DNA from: an uncultured Planctomycetota bacterium
GTDB taxonomy: Bacteria; Planctomycetota; Planctomycetia; Gemmatales; Gemmataceae
Direction: 5' to 3'
Assembly: GCA_963849325.1 (NCBI GenBank)
Contig: CAWKHF010000004.1
Location: 288,001 to 352,000 of the forward strand
Length of the DNA: 64,000 nt
Shown here: positions 29,716-50,019 of the stretch, piece after piece
Layout of the letters: each line of letters begins with the position of its first letter
How positions within the stretch are numbered: the first letter of the stretch is position 1
Position numbers and translations under genes: made by a program
The notes under the pieces: generated by a model
What the model was told of the DNA's origin: nothing
The model's input: only the letters and a program-made list of their open reading frames with translations
Database searches by the model: none

Positions 29716-31474
29716 TTAGTCTGAGGCGGGGCGTCTCGCGGCCTCATTCGTGGTGGTCCCTCGTGGACCCCGTTCGGAAGTTTGCCCTTCCTCACGCCAC
29801 GTTGCGCCTCCGCCGGCCTCCCACGGTTGTCCCACGAACTCCTCTATTCTGAAGGCTCCCATGTCCCGGCACAAGCACCAAACCGCCTCGTCCGCCCCCA
29901 GGCAACCCGCCACGCCCGTGGCACCGCAACGCCGCCGTCACACGCCCACTCCCGCCGACGACGGCTACCACGAATCCCTGCCCATTCAGCACGGCCACGC
30001 GGCCGGCATCGACGTGGGCTCACGCACGCACGGGGTCGCTGCCCCCGCAGCAGACGGCACCCTGGACGTGGCCTGCTTCGACACCTACACCGAGGGACTA
30101 CGCGCCCTGGCCGCCTGGCTCCATGCCCACGCGGTCACCACCGTGGCCCTGGAGGCCACCGGCATTTACGGCGATCCCCTCTTCGATCTGCTCCCAAGCC
30201 AGGGCTTTGACGTCATCCATGTCAACCCCGCCTACACCGCCCAACTCCAGGGACGGCCCAAGACCGACAAGCTCGACTGCCAGTGGATCCAACGCCTGCA
30301 CGCCCACGGCCTGCTGCCCGCCTCCTTTCGGCCCGCCGCCGATGTCGCCGTACTCCGCGTCTACCTCCGTCAGCGGGCCGAACTCGTCCGCGCCGGTGCC
30401 CGACACATCCAGCACATGCAGAAGGCGTTGGAGTTAATGAACGTCAAGCTGACCGAGGTGGTCAGCGACGTGACGAGCTGGACCGGCCTGAAGATCATCC
30501 AGGCCATCCTGGACGGTCAACGCGACCCGCTGACGCTGGCGCGACTGCGGAACAAGCACTGCAAGAACAGCATCGATACCTTCGCGCGTGCCCTGCAGGG
30601 CAGTTGGCGTGACGAACACGTGCTGACGTTGCGGCAGGCGTTAGCATCGTGGCAGCACTATCAGGCTCAGCAACGGGAGTTGGAGGAAGCGATCGCCCGC
30701 CACCTCCATCGGATGAAAAAGACGACCGCGCTGCCGCCGCTGCTGCCCAAGCCGCGACGGCGGAGCCGCGCGGCCAACGAACCACGCTTCGACGTGCGAA
30801 CCGCCCTGTACTACGTGACCGGCGTGGACTTGACCGAGTTGGACGGGATCGCCGACGTGACGGCCTTGGTGGTCGTCAGCGAGATCGGCCTGGACATGAG
30901 CCGTTTCCCCTCCGCGAAGCACTTCTGCGCCTGGTTGGGGTTGTGCCCGCGGGTGAAGAAATCCGGAGGTCGGGTCTTGTCGAGTCGGACGCGCAAGGGC
31001 AAGGGCGCCGCGGCGCGGGCCTTGTGTCTGGCGGCGCGGTCGTTGTGGCGCAGTCCAACGGCGTTGGGTGCTTTGCTGCGGCGGTGGAAGGCCCGCTTGG
31101 GGGCGCCTGCGGCGATAACCGCGGTAGCGCACCGAGCTGGCTCGGCTGCTGTATCAAACCTTGAAGACGGGGGCGTTGCCGGCCCGCGAGACGGCGGCGG
31201 CGTATGCGGCCCGCCAGCGGGAGCAAGCGGTGGCAACGTTGCGGAAGAAGGCGTTGCGTCTGGGTCTGCGCGTGGTAGCGACGAGTGAAATCGTGGAGAG
31301 CGTAGCGTCGCCGCCATGAACGATAGCGGGTGCGGCATGGCCCGAGGTTCGCCCAGGGAGACGAGCAAACAAGGCCCGATCACAGCAAGCGACAGCGAGG
31401 GAGACCGCTTCGGTTCACGGCGGAGCGTCCTTGAGTGCGCACAGCAGTCAAAGATAGAATAAGTCTTCTGAAGA
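29716..31474 (+). mobile_element. Second IS110-family element (different subgroup); boundaries inferred
   Basis: Transposase inside, structured left non-coding end, possible duplicated GA core at 29714-29715 and 31473-31474. Confidence 0.6.
29861..31319 (+). CDS. IS110-family transposase (frameshift near 31135)
   Basis: AAGIDVG, VALEATGIY, KTDKLDCQWI (DEDD tetrad), SEIGLDMSRFPSAKHFCAWLGLCP..KKSGG, AITAVAH; tail LARLLYQTL...LRKKA in the next frame. Confidence 0.92.
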
Positions 31475-32323: not shown

Positions 32324-35300
32324 ATGGTCCTCCTCTGTCCGCGTCTGGTCCTCCCGGCACTGCCGGTCTTCCTGGGGCTGGCGCTGTCCGCCGCACCGCT
32401 CTCCGCGGCCGCTCCGCCGGCGTCCGCGAGCTGCGCATCCAGCAGGTCGGCGATGTCACCTATTTCCACGTCCAGTTCGCCACGCCGCGAGGGATGACGC
32501 CGGGCGGCGAGACGCGCCTGGTGCCGCAGGACGGCCAGGCCAACCACGTCTGCCGGCGCAGCGATGATACGAGCGGCCAGGCCGCTTCTCCTCGGGGTGT
32601 CCAGCCCATCGAGACAAAAAGCGACACTCCTCCCGGTCGCCAGCCCTCGCCGGCGCCTCGTCGCCCTGTGCCGGTCGATGGCCTGGAGTTCACCGGCCGT
32701 CTGAATGGCAAGGGCGAGATCCCGTTCGTCCTGCTGTACACGATGGAGAATCCGCTGCCACGCCTGGGACTCTTCCGTTCGCAGATATTGCGTGGCCGGC
32801 AGCGCCTCAACTGGGTCGAAACGCCCGTCGTGCTCGATTTTCGCAAGGCCGAGAAGGTTGCTCTGCCCGCCGAGGCCAGGGAACGCGCAGACCGAAGCGG
32901 GCTAAGAAGAAAGCCGCTCCAATGGCCGGTGCGAGATGACCTCGAAGGATTGTGGGCCGTGGCCCAGAATGACGAGTTTGGCCGACTCCAAGCCGAGGTG
33001 ACGGAGTTCGGTTTCTACGCCTTCGCCATCCGGGCCGGCGCAGCAAGTATCACGTGCCCGTCAACCTTCACTGGAATCGCAGCATTCCTCCTCGCGGCTT
33101 CGCCAGGCCTCCCATTGATGCGCAACTGTACGAAACCACCACCGGAGCGGCCGCCATCGCCGAGTCGCTGCAATTGCAGCGCATGAGCAACGCCAACTTC
33201 CGCGACAACGGCAAGCGCAGCGTCGCCATCGACAAGATCGAGGGCATCGACATCGCCGAGCACCCGTGGGACAAGATGATGGGCGACAAGAAGCCCGCCC
33301 CCGAGCCGATGGCCCGCCTCATCCCCGACGACAACTACTACCTGCATTTCAAGAACATCCGCCAGTTGATCGAGTTCTCCGACCTGCTCGACCATTGGGG
33401 CACGAACCTCATCCGCGCCTACGAGGTCCACAGCCGCGATCACCGCCTCAAGGATCGCTATCAGCAACAACTCTGCCTGCGGAGCACGGAGCTGGGCCGG
33501 AAGTTCGGCCCGCTGGTGCTGCGCGGCGTCGCCGTCACCGGCAGCGACGGCTACCTGCGCGAAGGCTCCGACGTGGCGATCATCTTCCACGTCGCCAACC
33601 GTCCGCTGTTCCTCGGCGCCGTGCAGCCGTTTATCGAGGAGGCGCGCAAGAAGTTCGGCGACCAGCTCAAGGAGAGCAAGGCCGAGGTCAACGGCGTCAC
33701 CATCGAGAGCTTCACGACGCCGCTGCGCGAGGTCAGCCTGTACCGGGCGGTTGTCGAGGAGTACGTCATCTACGCCAACTCGCCGACCGGCCTGCGGCGC
33801 ATCCTCGACACCTACCAGGGCCGGCGCAAGGCGCTGGCCGACGCCCGCGATTTCCAGTACATGCGGACCATCTTCCGCTACGACGACAAGGACGAGGCCG
33901 GCTTCGCCTACCTGTCCGACGCCTTCATCCGTCAGCTGGTCGGCCCGGCCAGCAAGATCAAGGAGAAGCGACGCCTCGAAGCGCTGACGAGCATGTACAT
34001 GCTGACGGAGGGCGCCCTGTACCACGCCTGGCAGTCCGGCAAGCCGCCCGCCGACTATGACGCCCTGCTCGACGCCGCCGGGCTACGGCCGGAGGAGGTC
34101 TATCTGCCCGAGGGCCGGCCGCTGGTCTGGAACGCCGCCGCGACAGGTCGCCGTTTCCGACGTGTACAACACTCTCCACTTCGCCACGCCGTTGATCGAG
34201 CTGCCCATCGAGCAAATCACCGAGGCGGAGGCGCAGGCGTACCGCCAGTTCCGCGCTGCAGTATCTCGGCCTGTGGCGGCAATACTTCGATCCCATCGGT
34301 ATGCGCATCGCCCTCGACGATAAGCAGCGTCCGGCTCGATACCTACATCCTGCCGCTGGTAGCCAACAGTCGTTACAACGAGTTGCGCCGCGTCACCGGC
34401 GACGGCGTGGTTCGCCTGGACCTCGGCAGCATCGCGCCGCAAACGATCGCGCAGTTCATGATGCACCTGTCGCCCAACGTCGGCGACCGCGGCGGCGCAC
34501 TGGGCCTGCTCGGTTCGGGCGGTTCGGCCGGCGATCTCACTTCGCTCGTCGCCTGGGCGCTGGACCCGGTCGGCAAGTGGGTGCTCGTTCGCGCCGACGA
34601 CAGCCCGGTCTACGGTCAGCTGGCCGACCTGCTGGAACGTATCGACGAAGGACAAAATGTCGATGCCGAACGCATTGCTCGTCTGGTATTTCAGATGCCG
34701 GTCATGGTCGGCATGGACGTGAAGAACTCGTTGACGTTCGCCGTCGCCCTCGCTGCCGCGCGGACGAGCGTGATGAAGTCGCTCCCCGGCGCCTTGACCT
34801 GGGAGCCGCTGGAAAAACCCTACAAAGACGTGTCGATCGTGCAGATCAAGGCGACGCCAGCCGGCATGCGGCAGCGTACCGCTTACTCCAGCGAACACCG
34901 GCAAAGACCCGTTCCTGCCCGCCGTGTATTACGCCATGATCGACGGCGCTTTTTACCTCACGTTCAGCGAGCCGATGCTTCGCGACCTCATCGACCGCTC
35001 GCAGGAGAAGCGCGAGGGCGAGTCCCAGACGGTCGAGGTCAATAGCTCGCTGTACGTCTCGCCCGGCGCGGCGCAATTGACGCGCGGACTGGTTCAGAAA
35101 TATCTGGAGAAACAGGTCCACGACCAGGCGCTGGCGAGCGCGCCCGTGTGGTATCCCCTCTACCACAGCGGCCTTCTCGCCGAAGGGACGAGCCGCGCCG
35201 AGGCAAACACTCTGGCCGAGAGATATTTCGGTTTTGTTCCGGTCAGTCCGGACGGCGCCGCTTTCGTCTACGACCGGCGCACGGACGAGGTGCGCAACGA

Positions 35301-35466
35301 GCGGCACGGTTCGCCGGCGCGGCCGAAGACGCACAAGACACTGGCCGAGAACGCCCAAATCAAGCAACTGCTGGAGCAGCTGCGCTCGATCCGGGCCGAT
35401 CTGCGCTTCCGCGAAGACGGTATCCACACGACGCTGACGATCGATCGCAACGTCCCGGAGAAGTAG
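32324..35466 (+). CDS. Large exported hypothetical protein (about 1000 aa), several frameshifts
   Basis: AAGGAG RBS and signal peptide at 32324; continuous high-GC3 coding signal across ORFs 32494-33186, 33054-35045 and 34924-35466. No family recognised. Confidence 0.7.
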
Positions 35467-35573
35467 CTTATCCGCTCCCAGCCGCTTTCGACTTAGCGCG
35501 GCAGCGGCCAACGCTAAGCCGCAAGCGGCTGGGGCACCTGCTTTCCCACCTGGAGCAGCCGTCGCGCTGTTGT

Positions 35574-37491
35574 TCAGAACGTCCAACTCCTCGGCCACCG
35601 CTCGCGCCGCCTTGTCCATGATGAAACGATAGCGCTGCGACGGATCCTTGCCCAGCAGATCGACGAATGTCTTGTCCGTTTCCAGGTTCGAGTCGATCTG
35701 CACTTGCAGTAGTGTGCGATTGCGCGGATCGAGTGTCGTCTCGGCGAGCACCTTCGGGTCCATCTCGCCCAACCCTTTGAAGCGCGAGACCTCGGGCTTG
35801 GCGTTGGCGCGCAGGCCGGCGAGGATTTCTTCTTTGTGGGCATCGTCGCGGGCCCAGTAGGTCTCCTTGCCGACGTCGATGCGATACAGCGGCGGCTGGG
35901 CCAGGTAGACGCGGCCCTTGCGGATCAACTCGGTCATGTGCCGGAAGAAGAACGCCAGCATCAGCGTCGTGATGTGATGGCCGTCCGCGTCGGCGTCCAT
36001 GAGGAGGATGATCTTGCCGTAACGTAGACCGTTGAGGTCGAATTTGTCGCCGGCGCCGGTGCCGATCGCCGAGACGAGATCGTTCAACTCTACATTGGAC
36101 AGCACCTTGCTGAGCGGCAGCCCTTCGGAATTGAGGACCTTGCCGCGCAGCGGCAGCACTGCCTGCGTCTTGTTGTTGCGCCCCTGTTTGGTCGAACCGC
36201 CGGCGCTGTCTCCTTCCACAATAAAGATCTCTGATTCGTCCAGGCTAGTCGATTTGCAGTCGGCGAGCTTGCCGGGCAGGTTGAGGCGGCGCTGCGTGAC
36301 CGACTTGCGCTTGACCTCGCTGGCTGCCTCGCGTGAGGCGAGGCGAGCTTTGGCGGCGAGCACGATACGACCGACGATCTGGTCGGCGGCGGTCTTGTTG
36401 GCGTTCAGCCACGATTCCAGGGCCGGCCGCACCCAACCGTCCACGGTCGCCGTCATCTCCGGGTTGTTCAGCTTCTCCTTGGTCTGTCCCTGGAACATCG
36501 GCTCGCGCACGAACACCGACAGGATGGCGACGATGCCCTCGCGGATGTCCTCGGCCGTGATGGTCAAGCCCTTGACCTTGACCTCGTGCGTCTCCATGTA
36601 ATTGCGGATGGCCTTGGCGATGCCGCCCTTCAGTCCGTTCTCGTGGGTGCCTCCCGCCGACGTGCGGATGCCGTTGACGTAGGAGCGGATGGCCTCGTCG
36701 GTGGACTCGGTCCACTGCAAGGCCACCTCCATTTTTTCGCCGTTGTTGCGCGCCAGCGTGAAAGGCGTTTCCGTCACCGGCGGCTTCTGTCCCTCGACCA
36801 CGAGACGCTGCAAGAACTCCGGGATGCCGCCGGGATGCGTCAGATCATACGTCTCCTTGGCAATCTCATCCTTGAAGGTGATCTTCAGACCGCTGTGGAT
36901 GTACGACATGCTTTCCAGATGTTCGCGGATCCACTTGGGATCGAGCTGCGTTGTCTTGAAGATGTCGGCGTCCGGCTCGAAGTAGATCGTCGTACCGTGG
37001 CCGCGGAAGGGGCCGACCTTCTCCAACTCGCCGGCCGGTTTGCCGCGCCGGAACGTCTGCCGCCACTCGAAGCCGTCGCGGTGGATGGTAGCAATCAATT
37101 TGCGGGACAGGGCGTTGACGACCGACGAACCGACGCCGTGCAGGCCGCCGGAGTGGAGGTAGCTATCGCCATCGCCGAACTTGGCGCCGGAGTGCAGCGT
37201 CGTCAGGATCAACTCCAGGGCCGGCCTCTTGTGCTTGGGGTGCAAATCGACCGGGATGCCGCGGCCGTTGTCGCTGACGGTCACGGCGTCGCCGGACTTG
37301 TGCAGCGTCACCGTAACGGCGTCGGCGTGGCCGTTGAGGTATTCATCGACGGCGTTATCGACGATCTCCCAAACGAGATGGTGCAACCCCTTGGCGTCCA
37401 CGCCGCCGATGTACATCGACGGCCGCTTGCGCACGGGTTCCAACCCTTCGAGAACCCCAATGTCCTTGGCGGTGTAAGTGGTAGCGCTCAT
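35574..37491 (-). CDS. parE: Type IIA DNA topoisomerase subunit B (ParE/GyrB family, probably topo IV)
   Basis: LEGLEPVRKRPSMYIG, EIVDNAVDE, DNGRGIP, GGLHGVGSSVVNALS, EGDSAGG, PLRGK, DADADG, RFKGLGEM. Natural end ...EELDV with an apparent extra base before TGA at 35576-35574. Confidence 0.88.
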
Positions 37492-37554
37492 CAGCAAACC
37501 CATAAAACAGAGATCCGTAATCCCCTTCGGCCCAGCGTCCTCGTGAGAGGAAAC

Positions 37555-44059: not shown

Positions 44060-45569
44060 ATGCTGCCCGAATTCACACCGGCCGTCGCTCGCGCTTTGGA
44101 AGTAGCACAGGCCCACGCCCACGCGCTGGGCGCCGTGGAGATCCTCCCCCTCTACCTGGTGCATGGCCTGCTGGCGGAAGAAGAAGGGCGGGCCTTCGCG
44201 CTGGCGGTCGAGGCCGGGCTGGATGCCGTCGCCTTTCGAGCCCGTCGCACCTCTTGCGATAGCCCTCCTCCCTCCGAACGATCGCCGTTGCCGCTGCACC
44301 CGCGCGCAGTCGGCCTTTTTTGTTGCTCGGGATGTGGCCCGCGAGGCGACCGGCGAGAGTACGGTCGTCAGCGAAGCGCTGCTGCTGGCGCTTCTCCGCA
44401 CGGATGAGACGTTGGCCGCCGAACTGGAATCGTTCGGCCTGCGTCTGGCTGATCTGGAAGCCAGCATCCTTTCGCGCCGCCCGCCGCCCCCCCAGATCGA
44501 GGAGCCGCTTCACCTGGGCGACGTCACCGAGCACGTGGACACCGCCCGCATTCTCGATGCCTGCGCGAACCGCGCGCGGGAGGGGCTGCGCGTCGTCGAG
44601 GATTATTGCCGTTTCGTCCTCGACGATGCGTTTCTGAGCCGTTCCTTGAAGGAACTGCGCCACGATCTCACGTCGGTCCTGGCCGACCTTTCCGCCGACC
44701 TGCTTCTGGAGTCGCGCGAGACCCAGCGCGACGTCGGCACCGCGTTGACGACGCCGTCGGAGTTCGACCGCGCCTCGCTGCGCGACGTGGTAGGGGCCAA
44801 CTTGAAGCGATTGCAAGAGGCTTTGCGCAGCCTGGAAGAGTTCGGCAAGGTGCGCAATCCTCTTTGCGCTCAAGTGCTGGAGCAGTTGCGTTATCGCAGC
44901 TACACCCTGGAACGTGCCATCGTCCTCGGCGCGACGGCGCGTCATCGACTGGCAGGAGCGCGGCTCTACGTGTTGCTGTCGCGGTCCCGGTGCGCGGCCT
45001 CTCTCGACTGGACCATCGCCGAGGCGGCCGCCGGCGGGGCGCAGGTCGTGCAGTTGCGCGAGAAGGGCTTAACTGATCGTGAACTGCACGAGCGCGCCCG
45101 AGAGGTACGACACTGGACGCGGCAGGCCGGCGTCCTGTTCATCCTCAACGATCGTCCCGACATTGCCCGCCTGGTCGAGGCCGACGGCGTCCACCTCGGC
45201 CAGGACGATTTGCCCATCAAGGAAGCGCGTCGCATCCTCGGTCCCGATGCGCTCATTGGCGTCAGCACGCACAACCTGGAACAGCTGCGCCAGGCAATCC
45301 TCGACGGGGCCAGCTATGTCGGTGTCGGCCCGACCTTCCCGTCGGCGACCAAGGACTTCACGGACTTGGCGGGTCCGGAATTTGTGCGTCAGGCGTTGGC
45401 CGAGACGACGTTGCCGGCCTTCGTCATCGGCGGCGTCAATCCGAGTACGATTGATGCGGTCGTGGCGGCGGGAGCGCGTCGTGTGGCCGTCGGCCAGGCG
45501 ATCACCGCCGCGGACGATCCGCGCAGTGTGGCGTCGGCCCTGCTGGCCGCGCTGCCGACGGGCGCCTGA
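44060..45569 (+). CDS. thiE: Thiamine-phosphate synthase with N-terminal Clp-N-like and ThiD2-like domains (frameshift near 44315)
   Basis: FTPAVARALEVAQ...LVHGLL (Clp-N-like); RILDACANRAREGLRVVEDYCRF; VQLREK, NDRPDIA, GVHLGQDD, GVSTH, GPTFPSATK, IGGVN. Confidence 0.9.
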
Positions 45570-45609: not shown

Positions 45610-45637
45610 TTGACAGACTTCTTCGCCGTCCTATAAT
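45610..45637 (+). promoter_or_regulatory. Consensus sigma70 promoter of the tRNA/rRNA locus
   Basis: TTGACA-N16-TATAAT. Confidence 0.85.
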
Positions 45638-45750
45638 TCACTCTGCCCAACTGTCCCCCGGCACTCGTTGGTTGAGGTGTCCATGGTTTTGATCTCCATC
45701 CACTCCGGCAAGACGAGGTGAAGCTCTATCCTTCCATCCCGAGCGGATAG

Positions 45751-45779
45751 GGCCAAACCTGTGTAGGTTTGGCTTTTTT
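45751..45779 (+). terminator. Intrinsic terminator-like hairpin just upstream of tRNA-Ile
   Basis: GCCAAACCT-GTGT-AGGTTTGGC-TTTTTT. Confidence 0.7.
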
Positions 45780-45794
45780 GTTTACTAGACAACC

Positions 45795-45868
45795 GCGGGC
45801 ATAGCTCAGTTGGCTAGAGCGCAGCTCTGATAAAGCTGAGGTCCCAAGTTCGAATCTTGGTGCCCGCA
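45795..45868 (+). tRNA. tRNA-Ile(GAT)
   Basis: Cloverleaf: GCGGGCA/TGCCCGC acceptor, CAGCT-CTGATAA-AGCTG anticodon arm, CCAAG-TTCGAAT-CTTGG T arm. CCA not encoded. Confidence 0.95.
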
Positions 45869-45916
45869 TTAGGTGGTGTATCGAGGAAATACTTGCGGTG
45901 GGACAAGGAACGCCCC

Positions 45917-46354
45917 ATGTCGAGACCAATAAACCCGCGTCCTCCGTGCCCGACCTGCGGCAAAACGATGAGTTGGCCTCGATCCCGCTTTTGCTCTCCA
46001 AAATGTCGCTTGGAATTGGATTATCAACGGTATATTGCACGGTGGCTTCAAGGCGAGGTTTCCGGCGGCAGGGCAGGCGGTAGAGTTTCTAGCCATGTGC
46101 GCCGTTGGCTTTTTGAAAGAGCCGAAAGCAAGTGTGAGCAGTGTGGCTGGAGTCGAGTTCATCCGATCACAGGACACATACCACTTGCTGTCCACCACAA
46201 GGATGGTGACTCGGAGAACCATCAGCCAGATAATTTGGAGTTGCTCTGTGGTGGTTGCCACATGCTGACTCCCAACTACGGAAAATTGAATCAAGGTCGA
46301 GGTCGCGCCAGACGGGTGGAGAAGTTGAGGCTGTTGGCAGTTGCGGGGATGTAG
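45917..46354 (+). CDS. HNH endonuclease with N-terminal zinc-ribbon motif
   Basis: CPTCG...FCSPKC; CEQCG...LAVHHKDGDSENHQPDNLELLCGGCH; AAGGA RBS. Confidence 0.88.
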   Translation: MSRPINPRPPCPTCGKTMSWPRSRFCSPKCRLELDYQRYIARWLQGEVSGGRAGGRVSSHVRRWLFERAESKCEQCGWSRVHPITGHIPLAVHHKDGDSENHQPDNLELLCGGCHMLTPNYGKLNQGRGRARRVEKLRLLAVAGM

Positions 46355-46417
46355 CTCAGTTGGGAGAGCGCGTGATTTGCATTCACGAGGTCAGGGGTTC
46401 GAACCCCCTCATCTCCA
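46345..46417 (+). tRNA. tRNA-Ala(TGC)
   Basis: GGGGATG/CATCTCC acceptor with G3:U70, CGTGA-TTTGCAT-TCACG anticodon arm, AGGGG-TTCGAAC-CCCCT T arm. Confidence 0.95.
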
Positions 46418-46451
46418 CATAAGAAAAAATCAAAAAAAACAGCGGAGGGCA

Positions 46452-46480
46452 TTGACAGAGAGAGAGGACATCGCTAGGAT
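46452..46480 (+). promoter_or_regulatory. Second sigma70 promoter directly serving 23S-5S
   Basis: TTGACA-N17-TAGGAT preceded by an A-rich UP-like tract; boxA-like TGTTCTTTGACAA near 46689. Confidence 0.75.
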
Positions 46481-46928
46481 TATCAATCCCAAATGGATGG
46501 GGAGAAAAGACTTAGGTCATAAAGTCTCCGTCCGTTTCTTGTCTGGGTGAGAGTCGCTGCACGGGTCTTCTGATTGGCGTGCATCGACTCCCGATCAGCA
46601 AGACGAGGGTTCTAAGACCTTCGATTGTTCGGGTCGGGATGGCCAGTTCAACAGTTAGCGTCTCTGGCGCGGTTGACTGGTAGCCGTTTGTTCTTTGACA
46701 ATTTGGCAGCGGTAGAAGTTGCAATTCACGAGCAACGGCGGCACAGCGAGCTTTGGCAAACTGTGCTGACGTTTCTTGCGATCTCTGCATGAGCCCGAGA
46801 GAGAGTAGGATCGTTACTCCTCCCACCCGACGTTGGCCGCCTGGCCGCGACGAGGTGGGGCGGTAACTTGGAAGCGATGCCGGCTTCGGTACGGTGGGTC
46901 TCCACCAGCCCGAGGGCGGGATCAATGC

Positions 46929-49807
<2,879 letters not shown>

Positions 49808-49909
49808 GCATTGATCCTGCTCTCGGACCCCCACCAGGGTCCGATCCTGGACGGACCATGCAGAGAGAATTGCGACTTCGACCGCTGCCAGATGATACAC
49901 GCAGAGCTT

Positions 49910-50019
49910 TCCCGGTGAGCAGACCTGGATGGCCCCACCCGTTCCCATTCCGAACACGGCCGTTAAGCATCCAGGGCCGATGGTAGTCCTTCGCGGGCGA
50001 GAGTAGGGTATCGCCGGGG
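49910..50019 (+). rRNA. rrf: 5S ribosomal RNA
   Basis: CCACCCGTTCCCATTCCGAACACGG..GTTAAG, GATGGTA, GAGAGTAGG; terminal helix TCCCGGTGA/TCGCCGGGA. Confidence 0.95.

Follow-up and report, generated by a model that had tools for sequence, protein, structure and literature searches.

A free-standing HNH endonuclease gene between tRNA-Ile and tRNA-Ala of a planctomycete, a probable chromosomal member of a phage tRNA-cluster family

Homing endonucleases encoded inside tRNA gene clusters are textbook knowledge for phages T4 and T5 and, to our knowledge, have barely been described for bacterial chromosomes. The present work concerns a 64,000-nt stretch of DNA (hereafter named the window; contig CAWKHF010000004.1, positions 288,001 to 352,000) from a soil planctomycete of the family Gemmataceae, whose draft assembly comprises 14 contigs with a genomic GC content of 64%. 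In this window, a gene for a 145-amino-acid (aa) protein with a zinc ribbon and an HNH core lies between tRNA-Ile and tRNA-Ala. We read it as a free-standing HNH homing endonuclease gene and as a chromosomal member of the HNH family of phage tRNA clusters, to which a probability of roughly 0.68 is given on the basis of the comparisons described below.

According to excerpts of one paper (PMC2330249), SegB of phage T4 is a GIY-YIG homing endonuclease that recognises a conserved tRNA-gene sequence and for which homing in the tRNA cluster was shown. The same excerpts state that maturation of the next tRNA severs the stop codon from the SegB open reading frame (ORF), a step suggested to limit expression, and that the same was proposed for F-TflI and F-TflII of phage T5; these two enzymes and F-TflIV are cited there as homing endonucleases of the T5 tRNA cluster. 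As far as those excerpts go, the gene in the window resembles that of SegB in being a free-standing gene in a tRNA cluster whose stop codon would be lost by tRNA maturation, whereas SegB is a non-homologous, phage-borne enzyme of the GIY-YIG type with experimentally demonstrated homing. The idea that tRNA processing removes the stop codon, put forward for this locus in a preliminary description of the window, has therefore a printed precedent, since the excerpted part of PMC2330249 proposes it for SegB.

In the excerpted parts of two further papers (PMC6582537, PMC6409571), HNH genes in tRNA arrays of mycobacteria and mycobacteriophages are interpreted as homing elements by which tRNA clusters are disseminated. 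Those arrays appear there as large, accessory and of presumed phage origin, whereas the tRNA pair considered here is a core pair beside rRNA, and the likeness is one of position. Among the T5-like phages, gp177 of Tequintavirus HdH2 shares with the gene in the window the free-standing form, the orientation on the tRNA strand and the place inside a tRNA array. In those phages, however, the genes are carried by lytic genomes and homing takes place in co-infections, whereas here the gene resides on a bacterial chromosome, in a single-copy Ile-Ala pair before a 23S rRNA gene. No paper on an HNH gene in a planctomycete Ile-Ala spacer was found in a literature search outside which subscription journals and supplements lay.

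The HNH gene and its predicted protein

The gene and the tRNA genes around it were located as follows:

45795..45868, + strand: tRNA-Ile(GAT), found by ARAGORN and Rfam; the single full-length match in the genome and thus the sole copy in the assembly
45869..45916, + strand: spacer of 48 nt between tRNA-Ile and the HNH gene, with a Shine-Dalgarno-like AAGGA about 9 nt before the ATG
45917..46354, + strand: free-standing gene for the predicted HNH endonuclease, 145 aa, with an N-terminal zinc ribbon, linker helices and a CxxC-HNH-CxxC core
46345..46418, + strand: tRNA-Ala(TGC), found by ARAGORN and Rfam; its positions 8-10 (TAG) are the stop codon of the HNH gene

The ORF runs from the ATG at 45917 to the TAG at 46352-46354 and occupies the spacer between both tRNA genes. 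Its terminal codons GCG GGG ATG TAG share 10 nt (46345-46354) with the 5' end of tRNA-Ala. The preliminary description had claimed an intact ORF of 145 aa with zinc ribbon and HNH motif in the Ile-Ala spacer, with the stop and last codons inside the first 10 nt of tRNA-Ala, and both claims were confirmed by ARAGORN, Rfam and inspection of the frame 45917-46354. It had also described the gene as more AT-rich than the flanking genes, which agrees with the composition found (GC 0.541 vs 0.63-0.69 in nine long ORFs of the window). Neither an intron nor any other RNA family at E<=1 was found between 45560 and 46930, and the ORF sits between two intact tRNAs. The region around the start codon, GGACAAGGA..CCCCATG, is kept in G006, the second genome of the genus that carries the gene (see below).

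The protein was aligned with 40 relatives. The ribbon, CxxC...CxxxC, is formed by C11, C14, C26 and C30, and the core, CxxC/HNH/CxxC, by C73, C76, H94, N106, C111, C114 and H115. Residues C73, C76, H94, N106 and H115 were invariant in the 40 aligned sequences, and C11, C14, C26, C30, C111 and C114 were conserved in at least 90% of them; the pattern expected of a structural zinc site, CxxC...CxxC around the HNH motif, is thus found with C73/C76 invariant and C111/C114 conserved at 90% or more. In the AlphaFold model (pLDDT 85.4) this region forms a beta-beta-alpha core made of two strands (90-94 and 107-111) and, after them, a helix (112-116). The PHROG profile phrog_1271, annotated as 'HNH endonuclease', matched residues 9-128 (E 3e-20) with its positions 213-325 of 361, covering ribbon and core; the first ~210 positions of the profile have no counterpart in the 145-aa protein. 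A HMMER search over 1.84 billion representative sequences returned 6573 hits at E<=1e-3, 120 of them at E<=1e-30, most spanning residues ~10-135. On these profile and model grounds, the protein would belong to the HNH (His-Me finger) class of nucleases, with cleavage as its predicted activity.

The nearest neighbours in the Protein Data Bank (PDB) detected by Foldseek were the HNH domains of McrA (probability 0.98-1.00, E 4e-3, TM 0.34-0.38). EcoKMcrA and ScoMcrA (PDB 6ghc, 5zmm) are the best match to the HNH core both in structure and in PDB sequence, but these enzymes have at least 277 aa with an N-terminal domain that binds modified DNA, and the ~70-aa HNH core alone matches, weakly (sequence E 0.11; Foldseek E 4e-3). 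Some database sources give the name 'McrA' to relatives of the protein. An McrA-type restriction enzyme was rejected as an identification, given the 145 aa without the modified-DNA-binding domain and PDB sequence matches confined to the HNH core. The gyrase inhibitor YacG was likewise discarded (Pfam YacG 17.1 vs 25.5 bits; NCBIfam PRK01343 23.4 vs 79), the likeness being that of a generic zinc ribbon alone. A defence system was also set aside: the NCBIfam hits of the HNH core to IscB and ZorE are weak, 23 bits vs cut-offs of 175 and 600 (PADLOC was not searched).

Occupied and empty spacers and the tRNA habit of the family

Eleven genomes of the genus were sampled, including that of the window (G000), and the locus was assembled in nine of them. 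The spacer measured 476-478 nt and held the gene in G000 and G006, and it was 18-23 nt long and empty in the other seven. The site was also empty in all 22 loci from other Gemmataceae genera, with spacers of 7-120 nt. A protein search retrieved an ortholog from one of 60 relatives, G006, with 77% identity (E 4e-79), the same place and the same overlap with tRNA-Ala. G002 has an empty site together with a tRNA-Ala identical to that of the window and a leader 89% identical. No gene remnants were detected by tblastn with eight nuclease proteins in the 29 empty sites, including those with spacers of 97-120 nt (best E 0.011, outside the spacer). Among the nine genus genomes, the gene is hence a presence/absence polymorphism with clean empty sites (2 filled vs 7 empty). 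These counts bear out the earlier statements that the Ile-Ala spacer is normally short and non-coding and that presence among relatives would be patchy, the gene being found in two of the nine genus genomes and in none of the 22 loci at the family level.

Further copies came from a large protein collection, in which 52 clusters showed 44-81% identity, nearly all from contigs of 1-3 kb. The close relatives end almost always in 'GM', which is the GGG ATG of tRNA-Ala, and two relatives continue as GDVAQLGE, which is tRNA-Ala read in another frame. Twelve contigs of the Ile-Ala type were fetched. In ten the frame is intact and 144-154 aa long, and nine of these ten have their stop codon at positions 8-10 of tRNA-Ala. 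Of the other two copies, one (L093) has a premature stop and one (L118) is cut by the contig end; the decay of L093 is as expected in the cycle of a selfish gene.

A tblastn search against 50,697 phage records gave matches in 39 records; none reached 60% identity, and in 22 the match extended over 80% or more of the protein. Three phage loci were inspected, and in all three the homologue lies in a tRNA array on the tRNA strand, in agreement with the occurrence of homing endonucleases in phage tRNA clusters to which the preliminary description had referred. In Tequintavirus HdH2, gp177 is 37% identical over residues 11-132 (ribbon and core) and its coding sequence ends at the first base of tRNA-Thr; in a second tRNA array, that of Streptomyces phage Jada, the homologue is gp14; and in Raoultella phage Ro1 the HNH gene starts one base after tRNA-Thr.

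The same habit was observed in bacteria. A set of 106 family loci from many phyla comprised 26 loci of species-representative genomes and the 80 best among 403 loci from metagenomes. These loci hold 411 tRNAs on the nuclease strand vs 3 on the opposite strand. A same-strand tRNA was present within 400 nt in 89 of the 106 loci, in 61 a tRNA started no more than 100 nt after the match, and eight had no tRNA. Leaving out duplicates, 60 ORFs are followed by a tRNA on the same strand; the stop codon falls within that tRNA in 32 of them, and at its positions 8-10 in 20. The universal tRNA nucleotides U8-A9-G10 read TAG, and it is for this reason that genes of the family often end inside the next tRNA. 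Relatives in Acidobacteriota sit between tRNA-Thr(TGT) and tRNA-Tyr of a Thr-Tyr-Gly-Thr cluster, and others adjoin tRNA genes in Anaerolineales, Armatimonadetes, CPR bacteria and large tRNA arrays. The family lives inside tRNA operons, on the tRNA strand and as a rule immediately before the 5' end of the tRNA that follows.

In a tree of 81 members, the identity of the downstream tRNA was clustered, requiring 29 changes vs 42.8 with shuffled labels (none of 200 shuffles was as low), and the 11 Ile-Ala copies all fell in one clade with a support of 94. This shows that nuclease lineages tend to keep their tRNA partner, that is, a heritable fidelity to the site and not a series of independent events, with labels shared among kin.

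Other HNH genes of the genus were also seen near tRNA genes. G000 contains a second, distant HNH gene (contig C12:920165-920791, L002 1288-1914) encoding 208 aa, 40% identical over the core, which reads through an entire tRNA-Leu(TAG) and stops 4 nt beyond it. Weaker matches to the query in G002 and G006 (40-41% over the core) adjoin a same-strand tRNA-Leu(TAG), and in G007 and G008 related HNH genes of 152-191 aa lie ~700 nt upstream of tRNA-Gly.

Descent of the gene and competing explanations

Between G000 and G006 the nuclease genes differ with pN 0.12 and pS 0.67 (dN/dS 0.08, dS ~1.7); in the remaining pairs the silent sites are saturated and pN is 0.16-0.28. The GC content at third codon positions (GC3) is 0.534 in G000 and 0.51 in G006, vs 0.71-0.85 in the nine long ORFs of the window. 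The gene is intact, subject to strong purifying selection and compositionally atypical for its host. A gene with this divergence and a long residence in a genome of 64% GC would be expected to approach the codon usage of its host; since GC3 has stayed low, the composition points to a period outside the host genome.

GyrB protein identity, 91-94% across the genus members, was too flat for assessing kinship, and a gyrB DNA tree was used instead, in which G004 is a partial row and the gene of G002 carries frameshifts. The gyrB ORF of the window itself (34846-37500, - strand) is unusual in its length: it encodes 884 aa, ~240 aa more than in all relatives of the genus, which have a stop codon after residue ~642. 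The surplus residues correspond to separate ORFs located elsewhere in G009 (63% identity) and G002 (57%), as would result from a gene fusion or a sequencing error.

A second tree was built from the flanks of 39 loci (10 filled, 29 empty) with the insert columns dropped. In this tree, the presence of the gene needs 8 changes, at least 4 of them forced by starred branches, where the count of 8 is rough, the tree coming from fast-evolving spacer DNA with long branches; the filled loci were no more clustered than shuffled labels. A single clade of all filled loci was rejected (p-AU 2.5e-9). Uniform vertical inheritance, which the preliminary description had named as an outcome that would speak against a homing element, is on these topology tests refuted across the family.

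The tRNA alleles were also compared. The tRNA-Ile of G006 equals that of G002, and both differ at two positions from that of G000, whereas for tRNA-Ala it is G000 and G002 that agree, and the G006 allele departs from theirs at many positions, being similar to the one of G007. These mosaic alleles among G000, G002 and G006 hint at exchange, with allele types that are independent of the presence of the nuclease.

Several results weigh against the reading as a homing endonuclease gene. Within the genus, the empty-site G002 shares a gyrB clade (89/97), with no resolved branching inside, with G000 and G006; a sister relation of G000 and G006 was not rejected (p-AU 0.38), and each of their two nuclease genes has the other as its closest kin (80/81). 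For this nearest clade, a single old gain that was then passed on vertically, or else a loss in G002, may suffice. The nuclease tree, based on 145 aa, is star-like with 2 of 14 inner branches starred and is too short to reveal incongruence with the hosts. A dS of ~1.7 with an open, selected frame kept over the long term could reflect a host function. Homing would require the exchange of DNA between cells, because the Ile-Ala target is single-copy in the genome. With regard to the protein, Foldseek gave nothing at E<=0.001, and the Pfam models HNH_3 (PF13392, 22.0 bits vs a cut-off of 24.8) and HNH (PF01844, 15.3 vs 21.4) stayed below threshold; a PF13392 hit is precomputed for several close relatives, and we take the Pfam shortfall as a limit of model sensitivity. 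Many of the 106 family loci are related to one another or repeated (14 ORFs are duplicates). Finally, a search for public sequencing runs gave none that contains the locus, and the best shares 0.07 of the sampled words, tRNA words only.

Set against these points, three other explanations were considered. According to the first, the gene arrived a single time in the ancestor of G000 and G006, has been inherited vertically since then and is kept for a cell function, for example at the tRNA/rRNA locus or in defence against incoming DNA. A stranded or domesticated nuclease of this kind would account for a dN/dS of 0.08 at dS ~1.7 with all catalytic residues kept, and for the grouping of both genes at identical positions with identical overlaps in genomes whose sisterhood is not rejected. 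The gene is, however, not present in G002, which belongs to the same gyrB clade and has an identical tRNA-Ala, nor in the seven empty genus genomes or the 22 loci of the other genera; one copy carries a premature stop; GC3 lies far under the host level in both carriers, which is unexpected after a long residence; and the tRNA-operon habit is common to the whole family, phage members included. We consider this explanation unlikely.

The second explanation differs from the entry of a nuclease alone into the spacer. The mobile unit would be a cassette formed by the nuclease gene and its own tRNA-Ala, which overwrites the resident tRNA-Ala. The location of the stop inside tRNA-Ala in nine of the ten intact Ile-Ala copies elsewhere, the constancy of the tRNA partner in nuclease lineages and the mosaic of tRNA-Ile and tRNA-Ala alleles are in its favour. 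The tRNA-Ala alleles, nevertheless, ignore the presence of the nuclease, that of G000 being the one of the empty G002 and that of the filled locus L094 the one of the empty G007, and no leftover fragment of tRNA-Ala was found within the 48-nt spacer between tRNA-Ile and the HNH gene. A cassette of this kind is thus quite doubtful.

The third, an artefact in the form of a chimeric join or of a chance ORF in a long spacer, hardly deserves credit: rRNA-flanking regions are prone to misassembly and the assembly is a draft of 14 contigs, but the Ile-HNH-Ala layout recurs in a second genome and on at least 10 separate metagenome contigs, so that misassembly, which had been named beforehand as a possible objection, is excluded, and the frame has protein-like conservation (pN far below pS) and strong profile matches.

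The preferred reading therefore remains that of a homing endonuclease gene: the gene itself is real, and as a probable case of a selfish, homing element it is of interest, though it has precedents.

Transcription signals, the tRNA-Ile leader and what the locus may mean

The signals and genes around the tRNA pair are the following:

45610..45637, + strand: sigma-70-type promoter TTGACA-16-TATAAT with 12 of 12 consensus matches, proposed for the tRNA-Ile/HNH/tRNA-Ala unit; also present in G006
45683..45721, + strand: leader mini-ORF of 12 codons, MVLISIHSGKTR and stop, with two ATC Ile codons, between the promoter and tRNA-Ile
45724..45779, + strand: leader hairpin A (~45724-45752) and terminator-like hairpin (45749-45776) with a T-run, from a terminator scan; the 3' end of hairpin A overlaps the terminator hairpin
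46452..46480, + strand: second promoter-like site TTGACA-17-TAGGAT between tRNA-Ala and 23S rRNA; kept in G006, not in the empty-site G002
46929-49809 and 49911-50019, + strand: 23S rRNA and 5S rRNA, the downstream context

The gene before the tRNA unit encodes a ThiD2/ThiE fusion and ends at 45569. No 16S rRNA gene was found upstream of the tRNA pair, the sole 16S of the assembly being on another contig. The 16S-Ile-Ala-23S setting implied by the preliminary description was therefore wrong: the tRNA pair precedes an unlinked 23S-5S unit. The comparison with other rrn copies that it had suggested does not apply, given a single-copy Ile-Ala pair and a second 23S that lacks it. This second 23S copy of the genome (contig C10, L183 from 1190) is 99.87% identical over 3014 nt, with the identity starting at window position 46689, ~240 nt before the 23S gene. 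It has no tRNA-Ile, HNH gene, tRNA-Ala or promoter corresponding to that at 46452, and a tRNA-Leu(CAG) lies ~875 nt upstream of the identity boundary. Farther away, 14 kb upstream of the locus, the window contains an ORF for an IS110-family transposase (DEDD_Tnp_IS110 and Transposase_20; 29750-31288, + strand).

Between 45400 and 47000, four promoter-like sites were counted vs 0.5 expected from shuffled sequences. The second of those listed above belongs to an A-rich segment of ~110 nt (window 46419-46531) that follows tRNA-Ala in the carriers G000 and G006. The empty-site G002 has no such segment, tRNA-Ala passing straight to the conserved 23S leader, and the empty-site genomes G001 and G003 show a different promoter-like segment at its place.

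The leader of tRNA-Ile has an ordered architecture, in which the stop of the mini-ORF lies 2 nt before hairpin A and hairpin A overlaps the terminator hairpin by 2-3 bases. It was compared across 39 related Gemmataceae leaders from filled and empty sites. The terminator core was present in 36 of the 39 and the mini-ORF in 32, with exactly 12 codons in 24 of these. All 32 mini-ORFs contain at least one Ile codon and 26 contain more than one; among their 376 residues the share of Ile is 17.6%, vs 3.1% in the nine long ORFs of the window. In 26 mini-ORFs, the window's own not among them, all 55 Ile codons were ATT or ATC, which tRNA-Ile(GAU) decodes. In 32 sequences, 98.1% of the cells of the hairpins were paired and three pairs of hairpin A were changed on both sides, while the terminator stem was almost invariant. 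The leader had no Rfam match, and no leader of this type ahead of a tRNA gene came up in a literature search. Judged from its sequence, it looks like a candidate leader-peptide attenuator in which the supply of tRNA-Ile would set the transcription of its own gene and hence that of the nuclease gene.

From these elements, a course of events can be proposed for the preferred reading. The nuclease gene would be transcribed within the tRNA-Ile/tRNA-Ala precursor from the promoter at 45610. By means of the zinc ribbon and HNH core, its product would bind an empty Ile-Ala allele and cut it within or next to the conserved tRNA sequence, and repair from a filled allele acquired by DNA exchange would copy the gene, possibly along with the adjoining tRNA-Ala, into the cut. 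Cleavage by RNase P at the 5' end of tRNA-Ala would strip the last three codons and the stop, in which case a normally terminated protein would arise from the unprocessed precursor only and the nuclease would be kept low.

A more far-reaching picture is also conceivable, in which a dedicated lineage has colonised the core, single-copy Ile/Ala pair before the unlinked 23S rRNA gene of free-living Gemmataceae, persists through repeated transfers between species as a unit of nuclease and tRNA-Ala, and is dosed both by an Ile-sensing attenuator and by the removal of its stop codon by RNase P. We hold it as a tentative proposal that is, taken as a whole, rather unlikely to be correct.

For the biology of the family, the locus means that a nuclease family of phage tRNA clusters reaches an essential, single-copy tRNA pair by the rRNA genes of a free-living bacterium with a large genome. 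The gene causes a spacer that is used for typing to vary in length, and it provides candidate rare-cutting enzymes aimed at tRNA genes. If the leader works as it looks, a tRNA gene would be transcribed according to how well its own product decodes.

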